From a virus (lineage: Duplodnaviria; Heunggongvirae; Uroviricota; Caudoviricetes): a DNA stretch of 11,406 nt. Every line of letters begins with the position of its first letter. The first letter of the stretch is position 1. Shown in pieces: positions 1-11,406 of the stretch. The DNA is taken from IMG/VR virus record IMGVR_UViG_2548877011_000002, positions 1-11,406 of that record. The stretch is one strand, 5' to 3'. Made by a program: the position numbers and the translations under genes. Under the pieces are notes generated by a model. That model was not told the origin of the DNA and searched no databases. It saw nothing but the letters and a program-made list of their open reading frames with translations.

Positions 1-9
1 ATTTGTCAT
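1..9 (-). CDS. First three codons of the gene downstream of cII on the minus strand, probably a replication (O-like) gene; runs off the left edge
   Basis: Minus-strand ATG (reverse complement of 7-9) preceded by AGGAG (reverse complement of 15-19); position after cII as in the lambdoid layout. Too short to identify. Confidence 0.25.
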
Positions 10-41
10 AATGACTCCTGTGGATTGATCCAGTAATTCCC

Positions 42-338
42 TCAGAATTGCATATCAATTTGCTTAGAGTCCCCGGCGGCCACCGGGGATTTTTTCTTTG
101 TGATTTCATCAAGCGCATACTTAAAAGCTCTGCTAATCGGACTGATGTCTGATGCCATGCCAAAAGCACACAAGACCGAAGCTATAAACCTCCAGTCTGT
201 TCTGCTTATCTTCGATTCATGACAGCCAATCATCTTTGCCAGACCGCGCTGGGTAAGCGTTGACAGGTTGATGAGTAAATCAGTTTCAGCGCGATCAATT
301 TCTCGCTGTGATAGTTTGCTGTAACTTGTTTGTTCCAT
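42..338 (-). CDS. cII: CII-like transcriptional activator (lysogeny establishment)
   Basis: 98-aa ORF. C-terminus ..KKKSPVAAGDSKQIDMQF resembles lambda CII ..KKRPAATERSEQIQMEF as recalled; central HTH-like segment (LAKMIGCHESKISR); lies after cro on the same strand. Confidence 0.7.
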   Translation of the reverse strand: MEQTSYSKLSQREIDRAETDLLINLSTLTQRGLAKMIGCHESKISRTDWRFIASVLCAFGMASDISPISRAFKYALDEITKKKSPVAAGDSKQIDMQF

Positions 339-349
339 TTCTTAAGATT
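316..349 (+). promoter_or_regulatory. Candidate pRE-type promoter with CII half-sites (TTGC-N6-TTGT) and TAAGAT -10, antisense to the cII 5' end
   Basis: TTGCtgtaacTTGT at 316-329 inside the first codons of cII, followed about 14 nt later by TAAGAT (344-349); geometry and the TAAGAT-TTCC stretch resemble lambda pRE as recalled. Confidence 0.35.
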
Positions 350-377
350 TCCAATAGTGAATAGCTAGTTGAAAGGT

Positions 378-393
378 ATGCGTGGAAACGCAT
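378..393 (-). repeat. Perfect 6-bp inverted repeat (hairpin) in the cro-cII intergenic region; possible tR1/nutR-associated structure
   Basis: ATGCGT-ggaa-ACGCAT read directly; no T-run follows, so it is not a classical intrinsic terminator. Confidence 0.3.
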
Positions 394-423
394 ATGGCCT
401 TAGTTGGTCAGATATATTGGGAC

Positions 424-438
424 TCGCTTTGTCAGCGA
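424..438 (-). promoter_or_regulatory. nutR boxB-like hairpin (GACAA loop)
   Basis: Minus-strand reading TCGCT-GACAA-AGCGA, the same loop and near-identical stem as the plus-strand hairpin at 3334-3348; lies just downstream of cro. A possible boxA-like CGCTATTTT is the reverse complement of 462-470. Confidence 0.5.
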
Positions 439-476
439 CGTAGGACGAATGTCCATTGTGAAAATAGCGGTGTTAC

Positions 477-710
477 TTATGCAGCCGATGCTCTACGCGA
501 TACGAACACTAGGTTTTCCTTTTTCACAGGTTTATAACCCGTGAAATTACGAGTAGCTTCTTCGATTGCATTCGCTTTATCAGGGGAAGCTCTTCGAAAT
601 CCATATGCAATCTGGTCAAGATAGCCAACTGAAGTTTTCGCTAATGCGGCGAGTCGCTTCCATTCCTCACTAGAAGCCTCTTTTCGCCAGCGTAGTAGTT
701 CATTACTCAT
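477..710 (-). CDS. cro: Cro-like HTH regulator (YdaS/Cro-type)
   Basis: 77-aa ORF divergent from cI across an operator-rich intergenic region; HTH-like core LAKTSVGYLDQIAYGFRRASPDKANAIEEATR resembles YdaS/Cro-type proteins. Confidence 0.6.
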   Translation of the reverse strand: MSNELLRWRKEASSEEWKRLAALAKTSVGYLDQIAYGFRRASPDKANAIEEATRNFTGYKPVKKENLVFVSRRASAA

Positions 711-823
711 TAGTGCCTCCGTTTATCACACAGAACAACTTTACCATTTTGATAAATCATCCGCAATGTAAATTTATCATATTGCGTATTTATCCATTTG
801 CTAAATAGAGGGAAAATTGTGAG
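711..823. promoter_or_regulatory. oR region with divergent pR/pRM promoters and repeated operator motif
   Basis: Divergent cI/cro intergenic region containing TTTATCA at 722-728 and 773-779, TTTATCC at 789-795, and the inverted form GATAAA at 751-756; the 10-mer AATTTATCAT at 771-780 recurs in oL. Confidence 0.6.
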
Positions 824-1528
824 ATGGAAAACAAAGATATTCGCAAATCGAATCTGGCGTTTTTGCTAGATGAGCATAAAAAAATCGCGGGTAACACTAA
901 TGCAAGCTTTGCCGATAAGCTTGGGGTTAGCCCTTCTCAACTCACGCAAGTCTCCGGTGAAAAAAGCACTCGAAACATAGGGGATAAACTAGCAAGAAAA
1001 TTTGAAGCCGCGCTTGGGTTACCTAATGGGTGGCTTGATTTGGTACATGATGTAACACCAATTGCATCATGCTCAGATTCTTTAACTTTTGTCGGTCAGG
1101 TAAGAAAAGGGTTAGTGCGCGTGGTTGGTGAGGCAATTCTTGGTGTTGATGGTGCCATCGAGATGACCGAAGAGCGCGATGGGTGGCTCAAAATTTATAG
1201 CGATGATCCAGATGCCTTTGGTCTTCGTGTGAAAGGAGACAGCATGTGGCCCAGAATAAAATCAGGAGAATATGTACTCATTGAGCCTAACACCAAAGTA
1301 TTCCCGGGTGATGAGGTGTTTGTCAGAACTGTTGAAGGACACAACATGATCAAAGTTCTTGGCTATGACAGAGACGGAGAATACCAATTTACAAGCATCA
1401 ACCAGGACCACAGGCCAATAACGTTGCCTTATCATCAAGTAGCAAAGGTGGAGTATGTGGCTGGTATTCTGAAGCAATCTCGCCATCTGGATGACATCGA
1501 GGCAAGGGAGTGGCTGAAAAGTTCGTGA
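824..1528 (+). CDS. cI: CI-type prophage repressor (N-terminal HTH, C-terminal S24/LexA-like autopeptidase domain)
   Basis: 234-aa ORF; N-terminal HTH-like region (FADKLGVSPSQLTQV); C-terminal domain with a GDSMWP serine motif and a downstream lysine (MIKVLG) typical of LexA/CI self-cleaving repressors; divergent from cro. Confidence 0.9.
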   Translation: MENKDIRKSNLAFLLDEHKKIAGNTNASFADKLGVSPSQLTQVSGEKSTRNIGDKLARKFEAALGLPNGWLDLVHDVTPIASCSDSLTFVGQVRKGLVRVVGEAILGVDGAIEMTEERDGWLKIYSDDPDAFGLRVKGDSMWPRIKSGEYVLIEPNTKVFPGDEVFVRTVEGHNMIKVLGYDRDGEYQFTSINQDHRPITLPYHQVAKVEYVAGILKQSRHLDDIEAREWLKSS

Positions 1529-1610
1529 CTTCATCGTCACATAGCTGGTAACCAGTGGCCTGAAGAGACGTTTGGGTGATGTACATAGCATTTCTGGATA
1601 AAAATACAGA

Positions 1611-1652
1611 TTCCCTTTATGGGAAATGAATCTATAATTCCCAAAAAGGGAA
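1611..1652 (+). promoter_or_regulatory. Candidate promoter/operator for the toxin-antitoxin-chaperone cassette
   Basis: Two palindromes TTCCC-N5-GGGAA (1611-1625 and 1638-1652) flank a perfect TATAAT at 1633-1638; the toxin ATG is at 1665. Confidence 0.45.
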
Positions 1653-1664
1653 CAAAATCGGATT

Positions 1665-1952
1665 ATGAAGGTCTTAAACGTAGAGAAGCTTCACAGTTTT
1701 AGCCGGAAGCACAATCAGGCCAAGGGGGCTTTAGACTCTTGGTATGATGAAGTGATAAGAGAAAACTGGAAAACGACTCAAGACATACGGAATAGATTTA
1801 ATTCTGCCGACTTCCTTCCTAACAACAGGGTAATTTTTAATATAAAAGGCAATAACTATCGGCTCGTTGTCCAAGTTGTTTACCAGGCAGGAATGGTCAT
1901 AGTTGAAAGAGTTGGAACTCATGCAGAGTACGACAAGTGGAGGCTTAAATGA
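1665..1952 (+). CDS. higB: HigB-type toxin (RelE/ParE-fold mRNA interferase family)
   Basis: 95-aa ORF; C-terminal half FNIKGNNYRLVVQVVYQAGMVIVERVGTHAEYDKW parallels E. coli HigB (YgjN) ..FNVGGNELRVVAMVFF..CYIREVMTHKEYD as recalled; 4-nt ATGA overlap with the next ORF. Confidence 0.8.
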   Translation: MKVLNVEKLHSFSRKHNQAKGALDSWYDEVIRENWKTTQDIRNRFNSADFLPNNRVIFNIKGNNYRLVVQVVYQAGMVIVERVGTHAEYDKWRLK

Positions 1953-2605
1953 ATCGAACTAGCTGGCGCATCATTAAAAATAGTGAAGAGCATGCTGCAG
2001 CTATGGAAAGGCTCATTGAACTTGCGTCTAGTGATTTACAACCTGGAACTGAAGATTTTGATGAGTTTGAACTACTAGGCTTGCTTATCGAGCACTATGA
2101 GTCACGCGAGTTCCCTATGGACAAGCCAGATCCCATAGAAGCAATCAAGTTCCGTATGGATCAACAAGGCCTCTCTTATGCCGATATGAAACAATACATT
2201 GGCTCAGCATCTAAAGTATCTGAGGTCTTAAATCGTAAGCGTCCATTAAGTCTTTCAATGATCCGTAGACTACATGACGGACTTGGAATTCCTGCAGATA
2301 TCTTAATTCAAGATATGAGCGCAATTGAATGGAGCCTAGTTGACGCAGAGGAAGAAGAAACAGCCATGACTAGCGTCATTGCTCGGTGTGAGTCAGCCGT
2401 CACATCACCTTCTGCTTATTTCGCTGAAAAGGCTACAGAATCTTACTTTTCAAAAATGTTGTTCAGCGCAGTAAGGGGTAATGGCAAATGCAAAGAAAAA
2501 CGGAATGTTTTTTCTTTGATAAGTAACTTGTCATCAAGTTTCACAGCGGCTAGCAACCTGAATGACGAAATGACTTCTGACGGAAATTACTTATTATTAC
2601 CATGA
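1949..2605 (+). CDS. higA: HigA-type HTH antitoxin with a ~90-aa C-terminal extension (candidate chaperone-addiction region)
   Basis: 218-aa ORF; residues ~60-125 (PIEAIKFRMDQQGLSYADMKQYIGSASKVSEVLNRKRPLSLSMIRRLHDGLGIPADILI) parallel the E. coli HigA (YgjM) HTH region as recalled; it then continues ~90 aa beyond where HigA normally ends, Ser/Ala-rich; ATGA overlaps with both neighbours. Confidence 0.75.
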   Translation: MNRTSWRIIKNSEEHAAAMERLIELASSDLQPGTEDFDEFELLGLLIEHYESREFPMDKPDPIEAIKFRMDQQGLSYADMKQYIGSASKVSEVLNRKRPLSLSMIRRLHDGLGIPADILIQDMSAIEWSLVDAEEEETAMTSVIARCESAVTSPSAYFAEKATESYFSKMLFSAVRGNGKCKEKRNVFSLISNLSSSFTAASNLNDEMTSDGNYLLLP

Positions 2606-3006
2606 AAATTGAACTCATTAGCAAAAAAGTTGAACGCTTGGTTATGACACGGCTAGAAGGCGATTCAACAGCAAAAAAAGCCATAAAAACAACCGTTAAT
2701 CTAAATAATGAACTTTACACTAATGTGAAGGATTCAAAGCTATTTAGAGTGAGATATTTTGCCTCCGTAACTATTGAAGGCAGGCTTGAGATGGACATCA
2801 CATACGACTTTGACTTCCGGTCAGAAGATGATTTTTCTCATGAAATGGCAAAATCATATGAGGTAAGGTCCATTGCTCCCAATATGGCATATCCCTATAT
2901 AAAAACATATGCCGAGCAAATTATCCTCATGTCAAACCTTGGTAGGTTCACTCTGCCTTATTTTGATTTCTTGGCCAATCCCATGGAAACGAACAGTAAT
3001 AAGTGA
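2602..3006 (+). CDS. SecB-like chaperone (third component of the cassette)
   Basis: 134-aa ORF translationally coupled to the antitoxin; C-terminal PNMAYPYIKTYAEQIILMSNLGRF..LPYFDF resembles the SecB segment [28 protein letters not shown] as recalled. The similarity is remote and by eye only. Confidence 0.6.
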   Translation: MKIELISKKVERLVMTRLEGDSTAKKAIKTTVNLNNELYTNVKDSKLFRVRYFASVTIEGRLEMDITYDFDFRSEDDFSHEMAKSYEVRSIAPNMAYPYIKTYAEQIILMSNLGRFTLPYFDFLANPMETNSNK

Positions 3007-3014
3007 AATTCCCC

Positions 3015-3040
3015 ACCCGGCCTCAGCGCCGGGTTTTCTT
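3015..3040 (+). terminator. Intrinsic terminator closing the cI/cassette transcription unit
   Basis: ACCCGGC-ctcagc-GCCGGGT stem-loop followed by TTTCTTT, 9 nt after the stop codon of the chaperone ORF. Confidence 0.7.
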
Positions 3041-3144
3041 TGCCTCACGATCCCCACACCTAAAAACACATAACCAATTGTATTTGTTGAAAAATAAATA
3101 GATACAACTTGCTAAACAACGCAATCCAGATCTCCCTCAAATCT

Positions 3145-3265
3145 CTTTATTTATCCTGTCGAATTCCTACAACAAAATAAAACACCATAAGAATCAATAC
3201 GATATTTGAAAACCAAGAGAATTTATCATTTTGCTATTGCCATTAATTTATCATTCCGATAAAGT
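3145..3265 (+). promoter_or_regulatory. oL/pL region: repeated operator motif and candidate pL promoter
   Basis: AATTTATCATT at 3220-3230 and 3245-3255, TTTATCC at 3150-3156, GATAAA at 3258-3263; candidate -35 TTGCCA (3237-3242) and -10 TAAAGT (3260-3265) with 17-nt spacing, reading toward N. Confidence 0.5.
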
Positions 3266-3333
3266 TCACCCATCAGCAGGACGCACTACTCACCAGGGCG
3301 GTGAATATACAACGATTCGAATATGAATCTACG

Positions 3334-3348
3334 GCGCTGACAAAGCGC
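3334..3348 (+). promoter_or_regulatory. nutL boxB hairpin (P22-type, GACAA loop)
   Basis: GCGCT-GACAA-AGCGC matches the P22-type boxB as recalled; lies between pL and N. Confidence 0.6.
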
Positions 3349-3477
3349 AATAACCAAAGTGAACTTTGGGGTGAATGCAGAAGCTAACCTTCTCGGCGGA
3401 GGCGCTTTGCAATGATTACGCGACCGGAGTTAGTCGCCCGGCTGTATTCACCGCCAAAGTTCATCAGGAGGTTCCAT

Positions 3478-3861
3478 ATGACACGCAGAACTCAGTTCAA
3501 AGGCAATTCTCGTTCTCGTCGTCGTGAGCGTTTAAAGGCAAAGGCATTAGCTAACGGCGTACTGGCCCGCGAAGAAGCAATAAGTTCAGAAGTATTACAC
3601 CGCCCAACTCTAAGTAGAGCGCAGATTCAGGCTAAAGGTACTCACGAAACGCCTGATCGCATAGAAGACGCTAAGCCAATTAAGTTCATGGCACAGGACG
3701 TGATCTGGCAGCAGGAAGAATACAGACGCAATCTGGAGCGAGCGGCCATTGTGTACGCGAATGAGTTTGGACATAAGCAACCAGAAACTGGTGTATGTCT
3801 TCCAAATGTAGCTCTTTACGCGGCAGGCTACCGGAAATCCAAACAACTGACAGCAAGATGA
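3478..3861 (+). CDS. N: N-type transcription antiterminator (P22 gp24-like)
   Basis: Arginine-rich N-terminus (MTRRTQFKGNSRSRRRERLKAK); C-terminus ..VALYAAGYRKSKQLTAR close to P22 N ..VALYAAGHRKSKQITAR as recalled; AGGAGG at 3466-3471 before the ATG at 3478. The track start at 3412 is in frame but lacks an RBS. Confidence 0.8.
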   Translation: MTRRTQFKGNSRSRRRERLKAKALANGVLAREEAISSEVLHRPTLSRAQIQAKGTHETPDRIEDAKPIKFMAQDVIWQQEEYRRNLERAAIVYANEFGHKQPETGVCLPNVALYAAGYRKSKQLTAR

Positions 3862-3919
3862 CTTGTGTTGGTCGCCAGAAAATGAAATTAGGCAGCAAAC
3901 CACTTATTTGAGGTGATAT

Positions 3920-4390
3920 ATGACAAAATCATGGAGCGTACCTTTTCCTGAATCAGAAACTGAACATGATGGAATGCCTGTTTTCTGGAGATTCCAGGCG
4001 ACAGTTGAAGAAGATGGGATAAAAATATTCGCACTTCAATATATAGCTTTTCATCAGACAGAGCATTATGCATGGTTGGTTCCTGCGCATTGGATTGTTA
4101 ATTTTAAACCAGCACCAAATCAGTGGTTACAGGAATGGAAACAAAGGAGAAATAGATATGCAATTAAGAAAGTAGCAAAAAATGCAGAAAGATCTTTTGC
4201 ATTCCCAACGAAGAAACTTGCCATTGAAAGTTTATTGCGCCGGAAGAAATACCATTTAATGAGAATCAAACAAGATTTGGCTGTTGTATCAACTCTTGTT
4301 GATGGTATGAAGAATATTGATACATCAACACCAGATATTGAATATAACTTTGGACACAACCAAGAAACAGAAAATTGGGTATTTTATTAG
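3920..4390 (+). CDS. Hypothetical protein (156 aa) in an AT-rich island between N and ea10
   Basis: Complete ORF with GAGGTGA before the ATG; no family recognised; visibly AT-richer than its neighbours; followed by an inverted repeat and an intrinsic terminator. Confidence 0.5.
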   Translation: MTKSWSVPFPESETEHDGMPVFWRFQATVEEDGIKIFALQYIAFHQTEHYAWLVPAHWIVNFKPAPNQWLQEWKQRRNRYAIKKVAKNAERSFAFPTKKLAIESLLRRKKYHLMRIKQDLAVVSTLVDGMKNIDTSTPDIEYNFGHNQETENWVFY

Positions 4391-4404
4391 TACGAATAAG
4401 CACT

Positions 4405-4432
4405 GTGTATTCATTCCAACGAGTGAATACAC
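4405..4432. repeat. 9-bp perfect inverted repeat GTGTATTCA-N10-TGAATACAC
   Basis: Read directly from the sequence; sits between the 156-aa ORF and the terminator; could be a protein-binding site or RNA hairpin. Confidence 0.5.
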
Positions 4433-4494
4433 GGAGCAATGTCGCTCGTAACTAAACAGGAGCCGACTTGTTCTGATTATTGGAAATCTTCTTT

Positions 4495-4520
4495 GCCCTC
4501 CAATGTGAGGGCGATTTTTT
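4495..4520 (+). terminator. Intrinsic terminator
   Basis: GCCCTC-caatgt-GAGGGC followed by GATTTTTT. Confidence 0.7.
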
Positions 4521-4540
4521 ATCTGTGAGGATATGAACAG

Positions 4541-4909
4541 ATGTCAAACATCAAAAAATACATCATTGATTACGACTGGAAAGCATCAATAGAAATTGAA
4601 ATCGACCATGACGTAATGACAGAGGAAAAACTTCACCAGATTAATAATTTCTGGTCAGACTCTGAATACCGACTCAATAAACACGGCTCTGTATTAAATG
4701 CTGTATTAATCATGCTGGCGCAACATGCTCTGCTTATAGCAATTTCAAGCGACTTAAATGCATATGGTGTTGTGTGTGAGTTCGACTGGAATGATGGAAA
4801 TGGTCAGGAAGGATGGCCTCCAATGGATGGTAGCGAAGGAATAAGAATTACCGATATCGATACATCAGGAATATTTGATTCAGATGATATGACTATCAAG
4901 GCCGCCTGA
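4541..4909 (+). CDS. ea10: Ea10-like protein (lambda ea10 position, upstream of cIII)
   Basis: 122-aa ORF, the same length and position as lambda ea10 and with a sequence I believe matches it; GAGGA RBS upstream. Identity is from memory only. Confidence 0.55.
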   Translation: MSNIKKYIIDYDWKASIEIEIDHDVMTEEKLHQINNFWSDSEYRLNKHGSVLNAVLIMLAQHALLIAISSDLNAYGVVCEFDWNDGNGQEGWPPMDGSEGIRITDIDTSGIFDSDDMTIKAA

Positions 4910-4981
4910 GTGCGGCTTTACCGCATACCAATAACGCTTCACTCGAGGCGTTTTTCGTTATGTATAAATAAGGAGCACACC

Positions 4982-5146
4982 ATGCAATATGCCATTGCAG
5001 GGTGGCCTGTTGCTGGCTGCCCTTCCGAATCTTTACTTGAACGAATCACCCGTAAATTACGTGACGGATGGAAACGCCTTATCGACATACTTAATCAGCC
5101 AGGAGTCCCAAAGAATGGATCAAACACTTATGGCTATCCAGACTAA
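4982..5146 (+). CDS. cIII: CIII (FtsH inhibitor that protects CII)
   Basis: 54-aa product [54 protein letters not shown] matches lambda CIII as recalled; AAGGAG at 4970-4975. The track's GTG start at 4910 is an upstream in-frame extension. Confidence 0.85.
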   Translation: MQYAIAGWPVAGCPSESLLERITRKLRDGWKRLIDILNQPGVPKNGSNTYGYPD

Positions 5147-5258
5147 ATTCACTATCGCCACTTTTATTGGCGATGAAAAGATGTTTCGTGAAGCCGTCGA
5201 CGCTTATAAAAAATGGATATTAATGCTGAAACTGAGATCAAGCAAAAGCATTCACTAA
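5115..5258 (+). CDS. kil: Kil (host cell-division inhibitor peptide)
   Basis: 47-aa product [47 protein letters not shown]; overlaps the cIII 3' end by 32 nt as in lambda; AGGAG at 5101-5105. Confidence 0.75.
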
Positions 5259-5333
5259 CCCCATTTCCTGTTTTCCTAATCAGCCTGGCATTTCGCGGGC
5301 GATATTTTCACAGCCATTTTCAGGAGTTCAGCC

Positions 5334-5630
5334 ATGAACGCTTATTACATTCAGGATCGTCTTGAGGCTCAGAGCTGGGCGCGTCACTACCAGCAGATCG
5401 CCCGTGAAGAGAAAGAGGCAGAACTGGCAGACGACATGGAAAAAGGCCTGCCCCAGCACCTGTTTGAATCGCTATGCATCGATCATTTGCAACGCCACGG
5501 GGCCAGCAAAAAAGCCATTACCCGTGCGTTTGATGACGATGTTGAGTTTCAGGAGCGCATGGCAGAACACATCCGGTACATGGTTGAAACCATTGCTCAC
5601 CACCAGGTTGATATTGATTCAGAGGTATAA
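5334..5630 (+). CDS. gam: Gam (RecBCD inhibitor), short 98-aa form
   Basis: Sequence [51 protein letters not shown].. essentially identical to lambda GamS as recalled. Confidence 0.9.
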
Positions 5631-5635
5631 AACGG

Positions 5636-6421
5636 ATGAGTACAGCACTCGCAACGCTGGCTGGGAAGCTGGCTGAACGTGTCGGCATGGATTCTGTCGA
5701 CCCACAGGAACTGATCACCACTCTTCGCCAGACGGCATTTAAAGGCGATGCCAGCGATGCGCAGTTCATCGCATTGTTGATCGTCGCCAACCAGTACGGC
5801 CTTAATCCGTGGACGAAAGAAATTTACGCCTTCCCTGATAAGCAGAACGGCATCGTTCCGGTGGTGGGCGTTGATGGCTGGTCCCGCATCATCAATGAAA
5901 ACCAGCAGTTTGATGGCATGGACTTTGAGCAGGACAATGAATCCTGTACATGCCGGATTTACCGCAAGGACCGTAATCATCCGATCTGCGTTACCGAATG
6001 GATGGATGAATGCCGCCGCGAACCATTCAAAACCCGCGAAGGCAGAGAAATCACCGGACCGTGGCAGTCGCATCCCAAACGGATGTTACGGCATAAAGCC
6101 ATGATTCAGTGTGCCCGTCTGGCCTTCGGATTTGCTGGTATCTATGACAAGGATGAAGCCGAGCGCATTGTCGAAAATACCGCATACACTGCAGAACGTC
6201 AGCCGGAACGCGACATCACTCCGGTTAACAATGAAACCATGCAGGAGATTAACACTCTGCTGATCGCCCTGGATAAAACATGGGATGACGACTTATTGCC
6301 GCTCTGTTCCCAGATATTTCGCCGCGACATTCGCGCATCGTCAGAACTGACACAGGCCGAAGCAGTGAAAGCTCTTGGATTCCTGAAACAGAAAGCCACT
6401 GAGCAGAAGGTGGCAGCATGA
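5636..6421 (+). CDS. bet: Bet (Red-beta single-strand annealing protein)
   Basis: 261-aa product near-identical to lambda Bet as recalled ([37 protein letters not shown]..). Confidence 0.95.
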
Positions 6422-7098
6422 CACCGGACATTATCCTGCAGCGTACCGGGATCGATGTGAGAGCTGTCGAACAGGGGGATGATGCATGGCACAAATTACG
6501 GCTCGGCGTCATCACCGCTTCAGAAGTTCACAACGTGATAGCAAAGCCCCGCTCAGGAAAGAAGTGGCCTGACATGAAAATGTCCTACTTCCACACCCTG
6601 CTTGCTGAGGTTTGCACCGGTGTGGCTCCGGAAGTTAACGCTAAGGCTCTGGCCTGGGGAAAACAGTACGAGAACGACGCCAGAACCCTCTTTGAGTTCA
6701 CTTCCGGCGTTAATGTTACTGAATCCCCGATCATCTATCGCGACGAAAGTATGCGCACCGCCTGCTCTCCCGATGGTTTATGCAGTGACGGTAACGGCCT
6801 TGAGCTGAAATGCCCGTTTACCTCCCGGGATTTCATGAAGTTCCGGCTCGGTGGTTTCGAGGCCATAAAATCGGCTTACATGGCCCAGGTGCAGTACAGC
6901 ATGTGGGTGACGCGAAAAGATGCCTGGTACTTTGCCAACTATGACCCGCGTATGAAGCGTGAAGGCCTGCATTATGTCGTGATTGAGCGGAATGAAAAGT
7001 ACATGGCGAATTTTGACGAGATGGTGCCGGAGTTCATCGAAAAAATGGACGAGGCACTGGCTGAAATTGGTTTTGTATTTGGGGAGCAATGGCGATGA
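6418..7098 (+). CDS. exo: Exo (Red-alpha 5'-3' exonuclease)
   Basis: 226-aa product near-identical to lambda Exo as recalled ([62 protein letters not shown]..); 4-nt overlap with bet. Confidence 0.95.
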
Positions 7099-7277
7099 AG
7101 CATCCTCACGATAATATCCGCGTAGGCACGATCACTTTCGTCTACTCCGTTACAAAGCGAGGCTGGGTATTTCCCGGCCTTTCTGTTATCCAAAATCCAC
7201 TGAAAGCCCAGCGGCTGGCTGAGGAGATAAATAATAAACGAGGGGCTGTATGCACAAAGCATCTCCTGTTGAGTTAA
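7089..7277 (+). CDS. Small hypothetical protein (lambda orf60a position)
   Basis: 62-aa ORF overlapping the exo stop; same position and size as lambda orf60a. Confidence 0.5.
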
Positions 7278-7441
7278 GAACGAGCATTGAGATGGCACAT
7301 AGCCTTGCTCAAATTGGAGTCAGGTTTGTGCCAATACCAGTAGAAACAGACGAAGAATTTCATACGTTAGCCGCATCCCTTTCACAAAAGCTGGAAATGA
7401 TGGTGGCGAAAGCAGAAGCAGATGAGAGAGACCAGGTATGA
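7250..7441 (+). CDS. Small hypothetical protein (lambda orf63 position)
   Basis: 63-aa ORF overlapping the upstream ORF as in lambda. Confidence 0.5.
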   Translation: MHKASPVELRTSIEMAHSLAQIGVRFVPIPVETDEEFHTLAASLSQKLEMMVAKAEADERDQV

Positions 7442-7521
7442 CAACCACTGAATGCATTTTTCTGGCAGCGGGCTTCATATTCTGTGTGCTTATGCTTGCC
7501 GACATGGGACTTGTTCAATGA
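7438..7521 (+). CDS. Candidate 27-aa hydrophobic peptide (single predicted TM helix)
   Basis: Own translation: MTTTECIFLAAGFIFCVLMLADMGLVQ. ATGA overlap with the upstream stop (7438-7441) and overlap of its stop with the next start (7518-7521). Below the ORF-track size cut-off. Confidence 0.3.
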   Translation: MTTTECIFLAAGFIFCVLMLADMGLVQ

Positions 7522-7733
7522 CACCTCAGCAAGAAAACGCCCTTCGCAGTATTGCCCGTCAGGCTAATTCTGAAATCAAAAAAGCCAGACAGCAGTTTCC
7601 GGATAAAAACGTCGATGACATTTGCCGTAGCGTACTGAAGAAGCACCGCGAAACGGTAACGCTGATGGGATTCACACCGACTCATTTAAGTCTGGCGATC
7701 GGCATGTTAAACGGCGTCTTTAAGGAGCGATGA
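7518..7733 (+). CDS. Small hypothetical protein (71 aa from the internal Met; possible orf61-position homologue)
   Basis: Track ORF 7452..7733; the start MTPQQENALRS.. at 7518 is translationally coupled to the upstream peptide and is preferred. Confidence 0.45.
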   Translation: MTPQQENALRSIARQANSEIKKARQQFPDKNVDDICRSVLKKHRETVTLMGFTPTHLSLAIGMLNGVFKER

Positions 7734-7754
7734 ACATGAAAAGCAAAATCATCA

Positions 7755-7777
7755 GGGAGCTACAGGCTCCTTTTTTA
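7755..7777 (+). terminator. Candidate intrinsic terminator
   Basis: GGGAGC-tacag-GCTCC stem-loop followed by TTTTTTATTATT. Confidence 0.45.
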
Positions 7778-7831
7778 TTATTCGCATTCACCCTCAAGCG
7801 TATTAACCAACAATTCAGGGATTAATGAAAG

Positions 7832-8053
7832 ATGGCGGACATCATTGATTCAGCATCAGAAATTGAAGAATTACAGCGCAATACAGCAATAAAAATGCGT
7901 CGTCTGAACTACCAGACTATATCCGCCACTCATTGTTGTGAGTGTGGCGATCCCATAGATGAACGAAGACGTCTGGCCGTTCAGGGTTGTCGGACTTGTG
8001 CAAGTTGCCAGGAAGATCTGGAGCTTATCAGTAAACAGAGAGGTTCGAAGTGA
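7832..8053 (+). CDS. TraR/DksA-family C4 zinc-finger protein
   Basis: 73-aa ORF with CxxC-N17-CxxC spacing (CCECGDPIDERRRLAVQGCRTCASC), typical of phage TraR-like proteins. Confidence 0.65.
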   Translation: MADIIDSASEIEELQRNTAIKMRRLNYQTISATHCCECGDPIDERRRLAVQGCRTCASCQEDLELISKQRGSK

Positions 8054-8688
8054 GCGAAATTAACTCTCAGGCACTGCGTGAAGCGGCAGAGCAGGCAATG
8101 CATGACGACTGGGGATTTGATGCGGACCTTTTCCATGAGCTGGTAACACCATCGATTGTGCTGGCGCTGCTGGATGAACGGGAAAGAAACCAGCAATACA
8201 TCAAACGCCGCGACCAGGAGAACGAGGATATTGCTCTTACGGTAGGGAAGCTGCGTGTTGAGCTGGAAGCAGCAGAGAACAACCTTATTGATAGTGAATG
8301 CCATGTTGCTGAACTGGAAGAAGCGCTACGCGATAAGCAGGCGTTACTTGAAGCCTCAGAAAAGCGCAACGCAAAATTACAAAGCGAGAATGCATACATC
8401 CGCAACCGGTACAAAGAACTGGACCTGTTAATCGGGAAAAACATTCTTGTCATGCAGGCTGCGATTATCGAATGGCAGGCAACTGGCGACGCTAAAAGCG
8501 GACTGGCATGGATTTATAACACACTGTTTGGCCCAGGCGAATTGCCGGACGAATCTGAGAAAGATGCTCAGGCCTACTTTAATCGCAAATATGCACCGAT
8601 TGACGAAAAGCTTATGGAGCTTCACAAGTGGTTTTGGGAACAAAGTGAAGCCGAGCGCGCCGCTGGCATTCGCATCAAAGGAGAGTGA
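8050..8688 (+). CDS. Ead/Ea22-like coiled-coil protein
   Basis: 212-aa ORF with GTG start overlapping the upstream stop; N-terminus MSEINSQALREAAEQA.. and a central heptad-rich region resemble Ead/Ea22-like prophage proteins; low certainty. Confidence 0.45.
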   Translation: MSEINSQALREAAEQAMHDDWGFDADLFHELVTPSIVLALLDERERNQQYIKRRDQENEDIALTVGKLRVELEAAENNLIDSECHVAELEEALRDKQALLEASEKRNAKLQSENAYIRNRYKELDLLIGKNILVMQAAIIEWQATGDAKSGLAWIYNTLFGPGELPDESEKDAQAYFNRKYAPIDEKLMELHKWFWEQSEAERAAGIRIKGE

Positions 8689-8689
8689 G

Positions 8690-9445
8690 ATGATTCACTA
8701 CCACGGTGGGCCTATTACTCCTGATACGTGCGCAATGAGAGCATGGAAAGGGCGACATGCGTTTATCAGTTTTGCGCATTCAGGCCAGATCAATCTCGCG
8801 GCTGAATACTGTCAGTCGTTCGCGCTGGACAACGGTGCATTCACCGCCTGGAAAGCAGCTGGCAAAAACAAAATCGACTGGAGCGATTACTACGAGTTTG
8901 TTGCTCGCTGGAAGAATCACCCAGGATTCGATTTTGCCATTATCCCGGATGTTATTGATGGCGGAGAGGAGGAAAATGATGCGCTTCTGAATGAGTGGCC
9001 TCACGGAAAACTAGCTGGCGTTCCAGTGTGGCACATGAATGAAAGTGACGAGCGATTTATTCATTTGTGCAATGAGTTTCCGCGAGTGGCTATCGGTAGT
9101 TGTGGCGACTATGACGTAAAGCGCCCAACTCTTGCGGTAGCCAGAATGAAAGACCTGATTCGTCACATTGTTGATGGGCATGGTCAGCCGGTTACGAAAC
9201 TACATGGATTGCGCATGTTAAATCCGCTGATATTCACAAAATTACCCTTAGCCAGCGCAGATAGTACGAACGTCGCTCGAAACATCGGTATTGATAAAGC
9301 CTGGTCTGGGGCTTATGCACCTGCAAGTAAAGAGACACGCGCAGCATTAATGGTAGAACGGATTGAGGCACACAATAGCCCTGGTTCTCTTGCGTATTGT
9401 GAACAACGCGACCGCTTTGAAATGCAATTGCAACTAGCACTTTAA
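8690..9445 (+). CDS. TGT-fold protein, candidate DpdA-like DNA transglycosylase (7-deazaguanine DNA modification)
   Basis: 251-aa product from the ATG at 8690 (AAAGGAGAG RBS; the track's 8447 start lies inside the upstream gene). Collinear motif resemblance to tRNA-guanine transglycosylase: FALDNGAF vs LTDSGGFQ, FDFAIIPDVIDG vs DIVMIFDECTPY, FPRVAIGSCGDY vs GFDGYAVGGLAVGE, LASADSTNV vs GIDMFDCV. By eye only. Confidence 0.4.
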   Translation: MIHYHGGPITPDTCAMRAWKGRHAFISFAHSGQINLAAEYCQSFALDNGAFTAWKAAGKNKIDWSDYYEFVARWKNHPGFDFAIIPDVIDGGEEENDALLNEWPHGKLAGVPVWHMNESDERFIHLCNEFPRVAIGSCGDYDVKRPTLAVARMKDLIRHIVDGHGQPVTKLHGLRMLNPLIFTKLPLASADSTNVARNIGIDKAWSGAYAPASKETRAALMVERIEAHNSPGSLAYCEQRDRFEMQLQLAL

Positions 9446-9455
9446 GGACTAACAA

Positions 9456-10286
9456 ATGACCACTATTACCAAAGAACGTATTGAATTGTTCATTAAAAAT
9501 CCGCTTGAAAACGGGCTTACTCGTGGCGAACAAATGGAACTGGCACGAATTGCACTGGCATCACTGGAACGCGAACTGATTCGCCACGAGCATGCCAAAT
9601 GGTCTGACTCCACATTTGGCTGCGTTGGCCCCATTGGTCCACTGAAACACCTCTCAAAAGAGGCTCTGGAAGCCGCAGCCGAACCAGACGATCTCAGCGA
9701 GTGGGCTGATATGCATTTCCTGTTGTGGGATGCACAGCGCCGTGCTGGCATCAGCGATGCTGAAATTACCGCTGCTATGGAAGATAAATTGAAGATCAAC
9801 ATGGAGCGCCAGTGGCCTGAACCAAAAGATGGTGAGCCTCGCTTGCACATTAAAGAACCCGGCAACTCTCCGGTAATTCCGGATGGTTTATCCACGGTAT
9901 GCGCTGAGGCTTATCAGGTTGTAGGAGTTATGGCAGATGCGCTTGGTGTATTCGGTGATGCAGCAGTACAGAAAGTTCTGGATAACCTGTCACAGCAAAA
10001 ACTTGTTCACAGAGATGTGCTGCCGTTCTCGCTTCCGGCAACTCCGGATGGTTGGATAAGCTGTAGTGAGCGAATGCCTGAAATGGGAGAGCGACAATGC
10101 TATGTGTTAGCAGCTGACTTTAAAAACAACTACCCACCAAACATCCCCAACACTCAGGTCGGCGTATATGGCGACTGGTTTAATGATGGCAAGCCCACTT
10201 GGGATGACGGTGATGGCGAAGACCTGTATCTCAAAGAGGTAACCCACTGGATGCAGCTACCAGAACCGCCGCAGGAGGTGAAATGA
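9456..10286 (+). CDS. DUF550 (dATP/dGTP pyrophosphohydrolase-like) plus DUF551 two-domain prophage protein
   Basis: 276-aa ORF; N-terminal region (HEHAKWSDSTFGCVGPIGPLKHLSKEALEAAAEPDDLSEWADMHFLLWDAQRRAGISDAEI) matches the recalled DUF550 pattern; C-terminal DGWISCSERMPE..VLAADF.. matches the DUF551 pattern. Confidence 0.55.
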   Translation: MTTITKERIELFIKNPLENGLTRGEQMELARIALASLERELIRHEHAKWSDSTFGCVGPIGPLKHLSKEALEAAAEPDDLSEWADMHFLLWDAQRRAGISDAEITAAMEDKLKINMERQWPEPKDGEPRLHIKEPGNSPVIPDGLSTVCAEAYQVVGVMADALGVFGDAAVQKVLDNLSQQKLVHRDVLPFSLPATPDGWISCSERMPEMGERQCYVLAADFKNNYPPNIPNTQVGVYGDWFNDGKPTWDDGDGEDLYLKEVTHWMQLPEPPQEVK

Positions 10287-10369
10287 TGAATTGGCCTGAA
10301 GCATTCACCGCAGTTGGAGTTGCAATAGCGGTGGCATTTATTCTGTATTCGCTTTTCCGCTGGGGATAA
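10283..10369 (+). CDS. Candidate 28-aa hydrophobic peptide (single predicted TM helix)
   Basis: Own translation: MMNWPEAFTAVGVAIAVAFILYSLFRWG. Start overlaps the upstream stop (ATGATG at 10283-10288); the next ORF starts 5 nt after its stop. Below the ORF-track cut-off. Confidence 0.3.
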   Translation: MMNWPEAFTAVGVAIAVAFILYSLFRWG

Positions 10370-10373
10370 AGGA

Positions 10374-10616
10374 ATGTTCGCTCTGATTCAACGTGGTCAG
10401 ATATACACGGACAGAGCCGGATACCCTGTGGTGATTACTCGCAGTACTCAGCACTCAGTGTTCTTTCGACGCATGGACGGGCGCTCCGGACGGGTACGCA
10501 TTGGTGAGTTCAACAACCTGTTCGAACATATTGACCAACAGGAGTACCGCAAAATTCTGGCGGGCACTGAGCAGGAAATGCGCCTGAAAAAATTACGCGC
10601 AATGCAACGGAGGTGA
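10374..10616 (+). CDS. Hypothetical small protein (80 aa; possibly DUF4222-like)
   Basis: Complete ORF with AAGGA before the ATG; family assignment uncertain. Confidence 0.45.
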   Translation: MFALIQRGQIYTDRAGYPVVITRSTQHSVFFRRMDGRSGRVRIGEFNNLFEHIDQQEYRKILAGTEQEMRLKKLRAMQRR

Positions 10617-10619
10617 TAC

Positions 10620-10754
10620 ATGCATACGGCTTTTGAGTTCTGGGTTCGCAAGACATTCGGCAATCGCTACGACCTGACCCGTGATGTCGACGGCTTCTAC
10701 TGCCGTGAAGTTGTGAAACGAATGTTTGACGTGTGGTTCCACTGCCGTGGATGA
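10620..10754 (+). CDS. Candidate 44-aa Cys/Trp-rich small protein
   Basis: Own translation: MHTAFEFWVRKTFGNRYDLTRDVDGFYCREVVKRMFDVWFHCRG. ATG 4 nt after the upstream stop, GGAGGTGA RBS within the upstream gene end. Confidence 0.35.
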   Translation: MHTAFEFWVRKTFGNRYDLTRDVDGFYCREVVKRMFDVWFHCRG

Positions 10755-10772
10755 AAGTTTTATGAGGTTGGC

Positions 10773-11027
10773 ATGCAGACAATCATCTATCAGATAACCC
10801 CCAGCAAATGGTGTACGGAGAGAGTCCTTATTGCATCAACAGGGCTAAAGCCCGGCACCATCGAGCGGGCCAGAAGAAAGTCATGGATGCAGGGAAAAGA
10901 ATACCGCCATTACGCTGTAGAAGGTGATCCTGGGCATTACAGTGAATGCCTGTACAACATCGAAGAAATTATGCGATGGATCGAAAACCAGAAACAACCA
11001 GGTGCCAAAAATGCAAGTTCCGGTTAA
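10773..11027 (+). CDS. xis: Excisionase-like protein
   Basis: 84-aa ORF immediately upstream of the integrase start and co-directional with it; basic, small, with a conserved-looking ITPSKWC segment seen in some prophage excisionases. Call is mainly positional. Confidence 0.5.
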   Translation: MQTIIYQITPSKWCTERVLIASTGLKPGTIERARRKSWMQGKEYRHYAVEGDPGHYSECLYNIEEIMRWIENQKQPGAKNASSG

Positions 11028-11060
11028 CCTGTTAATGCTCCTGGACGTCTGGGAGGTTTA

Positions 11061-11406
11061 ATGAGTAACGCATCATACCCGACAGGCGTTGAAAACCATG
11101 GAGGATCACTCCGTATATGGTTTCACTATAATGGCAAACGTGTCAGAGAAAACCTCGGTGTTCCTGACACAGCCAAAAACCGGAAGATCGCTGGTGAACT
11201 TCGCACTTCCGTTTGTTTTGCAATCAGAATGGGGAGTTTCGACTACGCCGCGCAGTTCCCTAATTCCCCTAACCTGAAACACTTTGGTCTGGGAAAAAGA
11301 GAGATAACCGTTAAGGCACTTTCGGAAAAATGGTTGGACCTTAAGAAAATTGAGATTTGTGCGAATGCACTTAACCGTTACCAGTCAGTAATTAAAAACA
11401 TGTTAC
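11061..11406 (+). CDS. int: Tyrosine integrase, N-terminal (arm-binding) part; 3' end beyond the window
   Basis: Own translation from the ATG at 11061 (GGGAGG at 11051-11056): MSNASYPTGVENHGGSLRIWFHYNGKRVRENLGVPDTAKNRKIAGELRTSVCFAIRMGSFDYAAQFPNSPNLKHFG.., resembling N-terminal domains of prophage integrases. Absent from the ORF track because no stop lies in the window. Confidence 0.6.
   Translation, partial: MSNASYPTGVENHGGSLRIWFHYNGKRVRENLGVPDTAKNRKIAGELRTSVCFAIRMGSFDYAAQFPNSPNLKHFGLGKREITVKALSEKWLDLKKIEICANALNRYQSVIKNML

Follow-up and report, generated by a model that had tools for sequence, protein, structure and literature searches.

The locus described here raises the question of what the C-terminal extension of a HigA-type antitoxin is for. 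The protein matches HigA from E. coli K-12, then continues well beyond the point where the K-12 protein ends, and its gene is followed by a third gene. Such a locus may be an ordinary higBA pair with a neighbouring gene, or it may be a toxin-antitoxin-chaperone (TAC) system in which the extension is a chaperone addiction (ChAD) tail. The window, i.e. the whole stretch of 11,406 nt that was analysed (positions 1 to 11,406 of IMG/VR virus record IMGVR_UViG_2548877011_000002), has the following features in and around the locus:

477–710, minus strand: cro-like gene
824–1528, upstream of higB: S24-peptidase cI-type repressor
1665–1952, plus strand: higB, RelE-fold mRNA-interferase toxin of 95 aa (Pfam HigB_toxin, PF09907, E 4.5e-30)
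1949–2605, plus strand: higA, ORF of 218 aa
1949–2311, plus strand: higA core, residues 1–121, with N-terminal helices and an Xre-type HTH (by K-12 HigA and Pfam HTH_3)
2312–2605, plus strand: higA ChAD tail, residues 122–218 and stop codon (published ChAD bounds)
2602–3006, plus strand: higC (ORF3), SecB-like TAC chaperone of 134 aa (by SecB fold and PADLOC PD-T4-9_C)
3015–3044, plus strand: intrinsic terminator (stem ACCCGGC/GCCGGGT, then a T-run), which closes the three-gene operon
3412–3861, downstream of higBAC: N antiterminator
3920–4390, downstream of N: ORF of 156 aa, hypothetical protein in RefSeq (WP_000167595.1 in O26:H11 11368)

We consider it almost certain that HigA residues 122–218 are the ChAD of a HigB-HigA-HigC TAC anti-phage system, and that an Stx-type lambdoid prophage carries this system as a moron in the place of rexAB. 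The tail is already known: it is the published chaperone addiction segment of HigBAC and not a new finding.

The window covers the early-left and immunity region of a lambdoid phage, with bet and exo located beyond N. The ORF of 156 aa downstream of N had no match in a Pfam search. The three genes lie between the cI-type repressor and N, which corresponds to the rexAB slot of phage lambda. RexAB is a membrane-depolarising two-protein system. It occupies the same slot as HigBAC, between cI and pL/N, and likewise enables a prophage to exclude other phages, but there is no sequence or mechanistic relationship between the two.

H19-B, ST2-8624, and BP-4795 have immunity regions that match this one. 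By megablast, Stx-converting phages carry the 1.5-kb module in their immunity regions with 99.9% identity, among them ST2-8624 (described as 'similar to H19-B'), BP-4795, and many Stx1a/Stx2a phages. Of 5426 complete E. coli genomes, 88 have the module (e.g., O157:H7 86-24 and O26:H11 11368), as do 30 phage records. RefSeq and GenBank list the toxin as HigB family toxin, the antitoxin as 'helix-turn-helix domain-containing protein', and the third protein as 'hypothetical protein'. The latter two proteins of Stx phages can now be named HigA(ChAD) and HigC. The module may shape which lambdoid phages are able to superinfect Shiga-toxin lysogens (STEC, Stx1/Stx2 phages).

The first two genes form a type II HigB/HigA pair, in which a HigB_toxin gene precedes the gene for an HTH antitoxin with homology to K-12 HigA. 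The stop codon of higB overlaps the start codon of higA (ATGA, 1949–1952). Pfam HTH_3 covers HigA residues 67–118. K-12 HigA (138 aa; PDB 5ifg_B and 5ycl_A) matches with E-values between 5e-5 and 7e-5, residues 53–118/119 of the window protein being aligned to residues 68/71–133/135 of the K-12 chains. Because of this alignment, the C-terminus of K-12 HigA falls at query residue ~121–123. The original prediction had the HTH core end near residue 125 at the motif GIPADILIQD, and had K-12 HigA stop at the same place. The motif and the agreement with the K-12 terminus stand, but the core ends at D122. The predicted extension of about 90 residues is real and consists of 96 residues (123–218), with 91 residues to the end of HigA when counted from coordinate 2330, which is the W128 codon.

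When 1.84 billion cluster representatives were searched exhaustively with phmmer, 5525 HigA relatives were returned. Among the best 150 of these 5525, almost all alignments end at query residue ~121–140, and two span the tail. Relatives of 127–150 aa terminate with the core, and a search with the tail by itself matched three fragmentary HigA entries. The extension is absent from two-component HigA homologues, as is characteristic of a TAC. Alignment to two-component HigA, proposed earlier as a check, identifies it as extra with respect to both K-12 HigA and the 135-aa HigA from locus L012 (see below).

For the product of the third gene, searches of Pfam and NCBIfam gave no match at E <= 0.1, including the SecB family (PF02556), and sequence and profile searches of PDB chains returned nothing meaningful. 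Its relationship to SecB surfaced through fold comparison and PADLOC only. The AlphaFold model, computed with 20 homologues (pLDDT 86.9), has four antiparallel strands followed by a long helix. This fold matches Rv1957/ChAD and SecB, the best match being a TAC chaperone bound to its ChAD. PADLOC assigns HigC to the CmdTAC chaperone model PD-T4-9_C (E 3e-11). Thus, the third protein has the SecB fold that is typical of a TAC, and the predicted SecB-like third gene is borne out by fold and PADLOC match, although its score is below the Pfam SecB threshold. The HigC relative from the sister locus L014 (28% identical, blastp E 1e-17) reaches a Pfam SecB score of 28.8 against a cut-off of 26; homologue P0027 scores 21.6. 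The latter, from Pantoea (L005, 4001–4387), also matches the SMODS-associated NUDIX domain (PF18167) with 26.9 bits against a cut-off of 25 and has been named accordingly in UniRef. This match lies across the SecB-like fold region and probably reflects cross-matching of related beta-sheet folds. The 28 database relatives of HigC are almost all 'hypothetical' enterobacterial proteins.

Ten related loci, mostly obtained by exact-protein look-ups, were compared with the window. They are from Klebsiella, Salmonella, Serratia, Pantoea, an unclassified enterobacterium, and metagenomes; a scan of genome contigs with the HigC alignment yielded a single locus. In the window, toxin, antitoxin, and SecB-like chaperone are encoded in this order and co-oriented, with an ATGA overlap at each junction, which is the arrangement of a TAC. 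The gene order is the same in the ten related loci. All ten have HigB, a HigA of 217–241 aa, and a SecB-like gene, the higB gene not having been called in two of them (L006, L010). Most of the loci directly follow an S24 cI repressor, and the repressor types differ. In the two-component relative L012, HigB is 62% identical, HigA has 135 aa and is devoid of a tail, there is no chaperone, and the downstream gene codes for an unrelated protein of 259 aa. (P0044 had been considered as a two-component example, but no HigB was called upstream of this HigA-like gene, which is an orphan; L012 took its place.) The proposal that the tail together with a SecB-like gene separates a TAC from an ordinary higBA pair is in line with these data, as both are present in ten loci and both are missing in L012.

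A HigBAC system has been experimentally dissected in E. coli NT1F31, where it is located downstream of cI in the RexAB locus of a lambdoid prophage and defends against lambda-vir (bioRxiv 10.1101/2024.02.24.581848). The ChAD of the NT1F31 HigA has been delineated as residues 122–218 (96 aa) (Mets et al., bioRxiv 10.1101/2024.02.24.581848). HigBA toxicity is rescued only when HigC is co-expressed, while HigA delta122-218 neutralises HigB without HigC (bioRxiv 10.1101/2024.02.24.581848). Residues W128, F158, F188, and Y214 are predicted to be located in pockets formed by HigC residues Y39/N41/R49/D71 (bioRxiv 10.1101/2024.02.24.581848). In the triple mutant W128A/F158A/Y214A of HigA, rescue by HigC is abolished, and HigC R49A is inactive (bioRxiv 10.1101/2024.02.24.581848). 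A HigA121-148 peptide binds HigC with a KD of 1.3 uM, and W128A abolishes this binding (bioRxiv 10.1101/2024.02.24.581848). HigC raises the abundance of HigA, the full-length form of which was expressed and detected, and no aggregates were seen; HigA ends with Leu-Pro, and ClpXP, Lon, and HslUV are not required for its removal (bioRxiv 10.1101/2024.02.24.581848). The trigger is gpV from phage lambda, which competes for HigC so that HigB is released; by IP-MS, ITC, and HDX, gpV was located on HigC, with the tail as its competitor (bioRxiv 10.1101/2024.02.24.581848).

The correlation between the window and the published system is very close. Peptide HigA121-146 used for ITC (QDMSAIEWSLVDAEEEETAMTSVIAR; Dataset S1 of the paper) is identical to the window, and 22 published primers could be mapped onto it. 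Their mismatches are the designed Ala codons (128, 158, 188, and 214 of higA; 41, 49, and 71 of higC) and three natural SNPs. One of the latter is synonymous, one is G2502A (R185 here, Q185 in NT1F31; site at 2500–2502, three residues before F188), and one is in the terminator. The terminator is the 'native HigBAC terminator' of the paper, as primer MT16_terminator_rev maps to 3026–3045 with one SNP. The published higB fragment from NT1F31 shows a single difference over 288 nt, which results in I31 here (1755–1757) versus R31. The 150-bp leader has 8 SNPs relative to NT1F31, and there are 9 differences over the first 399 nt of the cloned region. RefSeq accessions differ (WP_000866443.1, WP_001082382.1, and WP_000687675.1 in O26:H11 11368 versus WP_112844290/289/288 in the paper), so that the proteins are not 100% identical to those from NT1F31. 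The identity to HigBAC of the NT1F31 type is established with the middle of higA and higC compared at primer sites only.

Shared with NT1F31 are the protein lengths (95/218/134 aa), the ChAD at 122–218, the four aromatic residues, the HigC pocket with Y39, N41, R49, and D71, the Leu-Pro end, the terminator, and the slot. The window allele differs by HigB I31, HigA R185, one synonymous SNP, 8 leader SNPs, and one terminator SNP. The host elements of the window allele are Stx1/Stx2-converting phages of O157, O26, and other STEC, a context which is absent from the NT1F31 HigBAC paper. Judged from the sequence comparison, the window carries a near-identical allele of the published, experimentally dissected system. 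By analogy, we infer that the window allele, with R185 and HigB I31, would behave like the NT1F31 allele. The finding itself adds little, as tail, chaperone, deletion experiment, and phage trigger have been published for a near-identical allele.

The published data bear directly on the claim that the tail makes the antitoxin aggregation-prone and chaperone-dependent. Chaperone dependence is confirmed for the near-identical allele by the deletion of residues 122–218. The aggregation part needs adjusting, as the published data favour proteolysis of HigA. They point to HigC guarding HigA from proteolysis rather than from visible aggregation. Aggregation-proneness is predicted around F188.

The working features of the tail are four aromatic motifs about 30 residues apart:

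2330–2332, plus strand: W128 motif of the higA tail
2420–2422, plus strand: F158 motif of the higA tail
2510–2512, plus strand: F188 motif of the higA tail
2588–2590, plus strand: Y214 motif of the higA tail

The motifs are spaced by 30, 30, and 26 residues in the window and by about 28–37, 30–34, and 26–29 residues across 10 homologues. When ten HigA homologues were aligned, E127, W128, F158, and D211 did not vary, and an aromatic residue was always found at positions 188 and 214. The mean pairwise identity of these ten homologues is 77% for the core and 34% for the tail. On the chaperone side, all four pocket residues are present in HigC from the window, and N41, R49, and D71 are invariant among 20 HigC homologues. 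Behind the fourth motif, HigA ends with Leu-Pro, and its stop codon overlaps the start codon of higC (ATGA, 2602–2605).

The following mechanism is proposed. The disordered tail would make free HigA unstable. A SecB-like HigC tetramer would capture the tail, probably co-translationally because of the overlapping stop and start codons (ATGA), with W128, F158, F188, and Y214 slotting into the equivalent pockets of the four HigC subunits. This capture would stabilise HigA, and the HigB RNase would be neutralised. Once a phage infects, one of its structural proteins (such as lambda gpV), still nascent and with aromatic residues in a similar pattern, would compete for HigC, HigA would be lost, HigB would shut down translation, and the infection would abort.

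Alternatively, the tail might be a degron or spacer that acts independently of a chaperone, with ORF3 being an unrelated moron and the locus an ordinary higBA pair with a passenger gene. The failure of ORF3 to match Pfam, NCBIfam, or PDB sequences would be in keeping with this, as would the published indication that free HigA is subject to proteolysis rather than aggregation. Yet ORF3 has a SecB fold with a ChAD-bound TAC chaperone as best match, it also matches the CmdC model, and its start overlaps the higA stop. Tail and ORF3 occur together in every locus examined and are jointly absent in L012. The published ITC, R49A, and triple-Ala data attest to direct and specific binding, and for the near-identical allele the alternative is refuted by the rescue from HigBA toxicity, which occurs only with co-expressed HigC. 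We thus consider an unrelated passenger gene to be very improbable.

The structure prediction supports the ChAD assignment and is relevant for a second alternative. For HigA alone, AlphaFold returned a pLDDT >90 for residues 11–120 but <50 for residues 125–164 and 177–218, and the tail contains three short helices of low confidence. The tail is thus predicted to be intrinsically disordered, which fits a TAC antitoxin, and the disorder check suggested with the original prediction came out as anticipated. The three helices could be taken to indicate that the tail is folded, or folds upon binding, and by itself senses a phage protein, with HigC as a general holdase. Also, the HigA core of relatives is found with other C-terminal modules, e.g., M78/ImmA-IrrE in PD-lambda-2_B-type proteins of ~400 aa. 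A pLDDT below 50 is at odds with a folded sensor, as is a tail conservation of 20–67% outside the aromatic positions, and gpV has been located on HigC, where it competes with the tail, by the published IP-MS, ITC, and HDX data. There is very little chance that the tail itself is the sensor, and a chaperone addiction segment is the preferred reading.

With respect to composition, the tail had been described as Ser/Ala-rich and of low complexity. The former is correct (Ser 16.7% and Ala 11.5%, compared to 9.0% and 6.6% in the HigA core; sums of 28% versus 16%). The latter is not, as the Shannon entropy is 3.87 bits for the tail and 4.00 bits for the core. In mononucleotide shuffles of the 288-nt tail, the frame stays open in 0.12% of cases, and in 9 diverged homologous loci the tail frame is open for 97–119 codons and either reaches or overlaps the start codon of the chaperone gene. 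It follows that the tail is genuine coding sequence under selection rather than a run-on ORF. PHROG 11202 spans HigA from residue 1 to residue 218, end to end, and the exact 218-aa protein is encoded on at least 1000 contigs. That the extension results from faulty annotation (a frame running on, or a small separate gene joined to HigA by a frameshift), for which the lack of any domain match in the tail might be quoted, has a negligible probability given these data, the experimental detection of full-length HigA (bioRxiv 10.1101/2024.02.24.581848), and the finding that close relatives show no conserved internal stop/start between core and tail.

Two minor additions can be made to what has been published on HigBAC: the faster divergence of tail and chaperone, and twin conserved palindromes upstream of higB. 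Regarding the first, sequence identity to the window (L001–L014) is 59–92% for HigB and 63–96% for the HigA core, compared to 30–75% for HigC and 20–67% for the tail, the length of the tail being 97–100 aa in all of these loci but one. HigB and the HigA core are better conserved than HigC and the tail, so that the sensor half diverges faster than the toxin-antitoxin core. This would fit a tail and a chaperone that co-evolve, a sensor under diversifying selection, or an arms race.

Other known systems differ from HigBAC to various degrees. K-12 HigBA (ygjNM) and other two-component pairs have a toxin from the same family (PF09907) and the same HigA HTH core, but neither a C-terminal tail nor a chaperone gene. 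The TAC from M. tuberculosis (HigB1-HigA1-Rv1957; Bordes 2016, PMC5105189; Guillet 2019, PMC6377645) has a chaperone, Rv1957, to which HigC is 14% identical. The ChAD from the window has over twice the length and four motifs with which it wraps; HigA lacks the ClpXP-type C-terminal degron and ends with Leu-Pro rather than Val-Ala; and the system serves phage sensing from a prophage, not a chromosomal stress response. Aggregation is documented for the mycobacterial TAC. CmdTAC/PD-T4-9 (PMC9519451) is a prophage-carried TAC anti-phage defence with a homologous SecB-like chaperone, but its toxin is an ADP-ribosyltransferase, its antitoxin is unrelated, and the ChAD of CmdA ends with Ala-Ala and is ClpXP-dependent.

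A further relationship exists to PD-lambda-2 (Vassallo 2022). HigB matches PADLOC model PD-Lambda-2_A (E 2.5e-42), and HigA residues 5–127 match residues 3–125 of PD-Lambda-2_B (E 3.8e-50). PD-lambda-2_B carries an ImmA/IrrE (M78) peptidase domain where HigA has its ChAD, and the third gene of that system codes for a P4-antitoxin-like protein, not for a SecB-like one. Fusions of the HigA core (50–58% identity) to an M78/ImmA-IrrE peptidase were observed in P0048, P0050, and ~50 further matches of ~400 aa. The HigB/HigA core was encountered with at least three C-terminal arrangements: none, ChAD with SecB-like chaperone, and peptidase. The C-terminus of HigA appears to be a swap point for accessory modules. 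It may serve in general as a docking point at which phage-sensor modules (ChAD with SecB-like chaperone; M78 peptidase) can be exchanged.

The second addition concerns the region between the cI-type repressor gene and higB, which contains two copies of a palindrome:

1611–1625, upstream of higB: TTCCCTTTATGGGAA (TTCCC-N5-GGGAA)
1638–1652, upstream of higB: TTCCCAAAAAGGGAA (TTCCC-N5-GGGAA)

The centres of the palindromes are 27 bp apart, the pair being located 13–54 nt 5' of higB. They flank a perfect TATAAT (1633–1638). A consensus promoter scan reported no promoter upstream of higB, the TATAAT being devoid of a good -35 element. For TTCCC-N5-GGGAA, 0.01 matches are expected per window; two were found, a number reached in 0 of 200 shuffles. 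The pair is present at the same position upstream of higB in L001–L004, L006–L010, and L016, while L005, L014, and L015 have a single copy. It is kept even behind unrelated cI genes and in a Serratia locus away from cI. There is no mention of these palindromes in the HigBAC paper (bioRxiv 10.1101/2024.02.24.581848). They probably serve HigA as operators, with the module having a promoter of its own. They could provide a HigA-autoregulated promoter that is independent of cI, which would result in a portable sensor cassette.

Any of R185 (close to F188, an aggregation and degron motif), I31, and the 8 leader SNPs could have changed stability or trigger range relative to NT1F31. That the Stx-phage allele is functionally different from NT1F31, that the palindromes represent a HigA-autoregulated promoter, and that the C-terminus of HigA is a sensor docking point is a tentative combination, and we doubt that all three hold jointly.

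In Serratia marcescens (L002–L004, 3055–4405), HigBAC and the twin palindromes are found between genes for a DUF927 protein and for P22 gp7-type injection proteins, away from cI, so the cassette travels as a moron in its own right. In the window, the module (1665–3006) has a G+C content of 37–41%, compared to 45–52% for cI, N, and bet, which is consistent with horizontal acquisition of the cassette.
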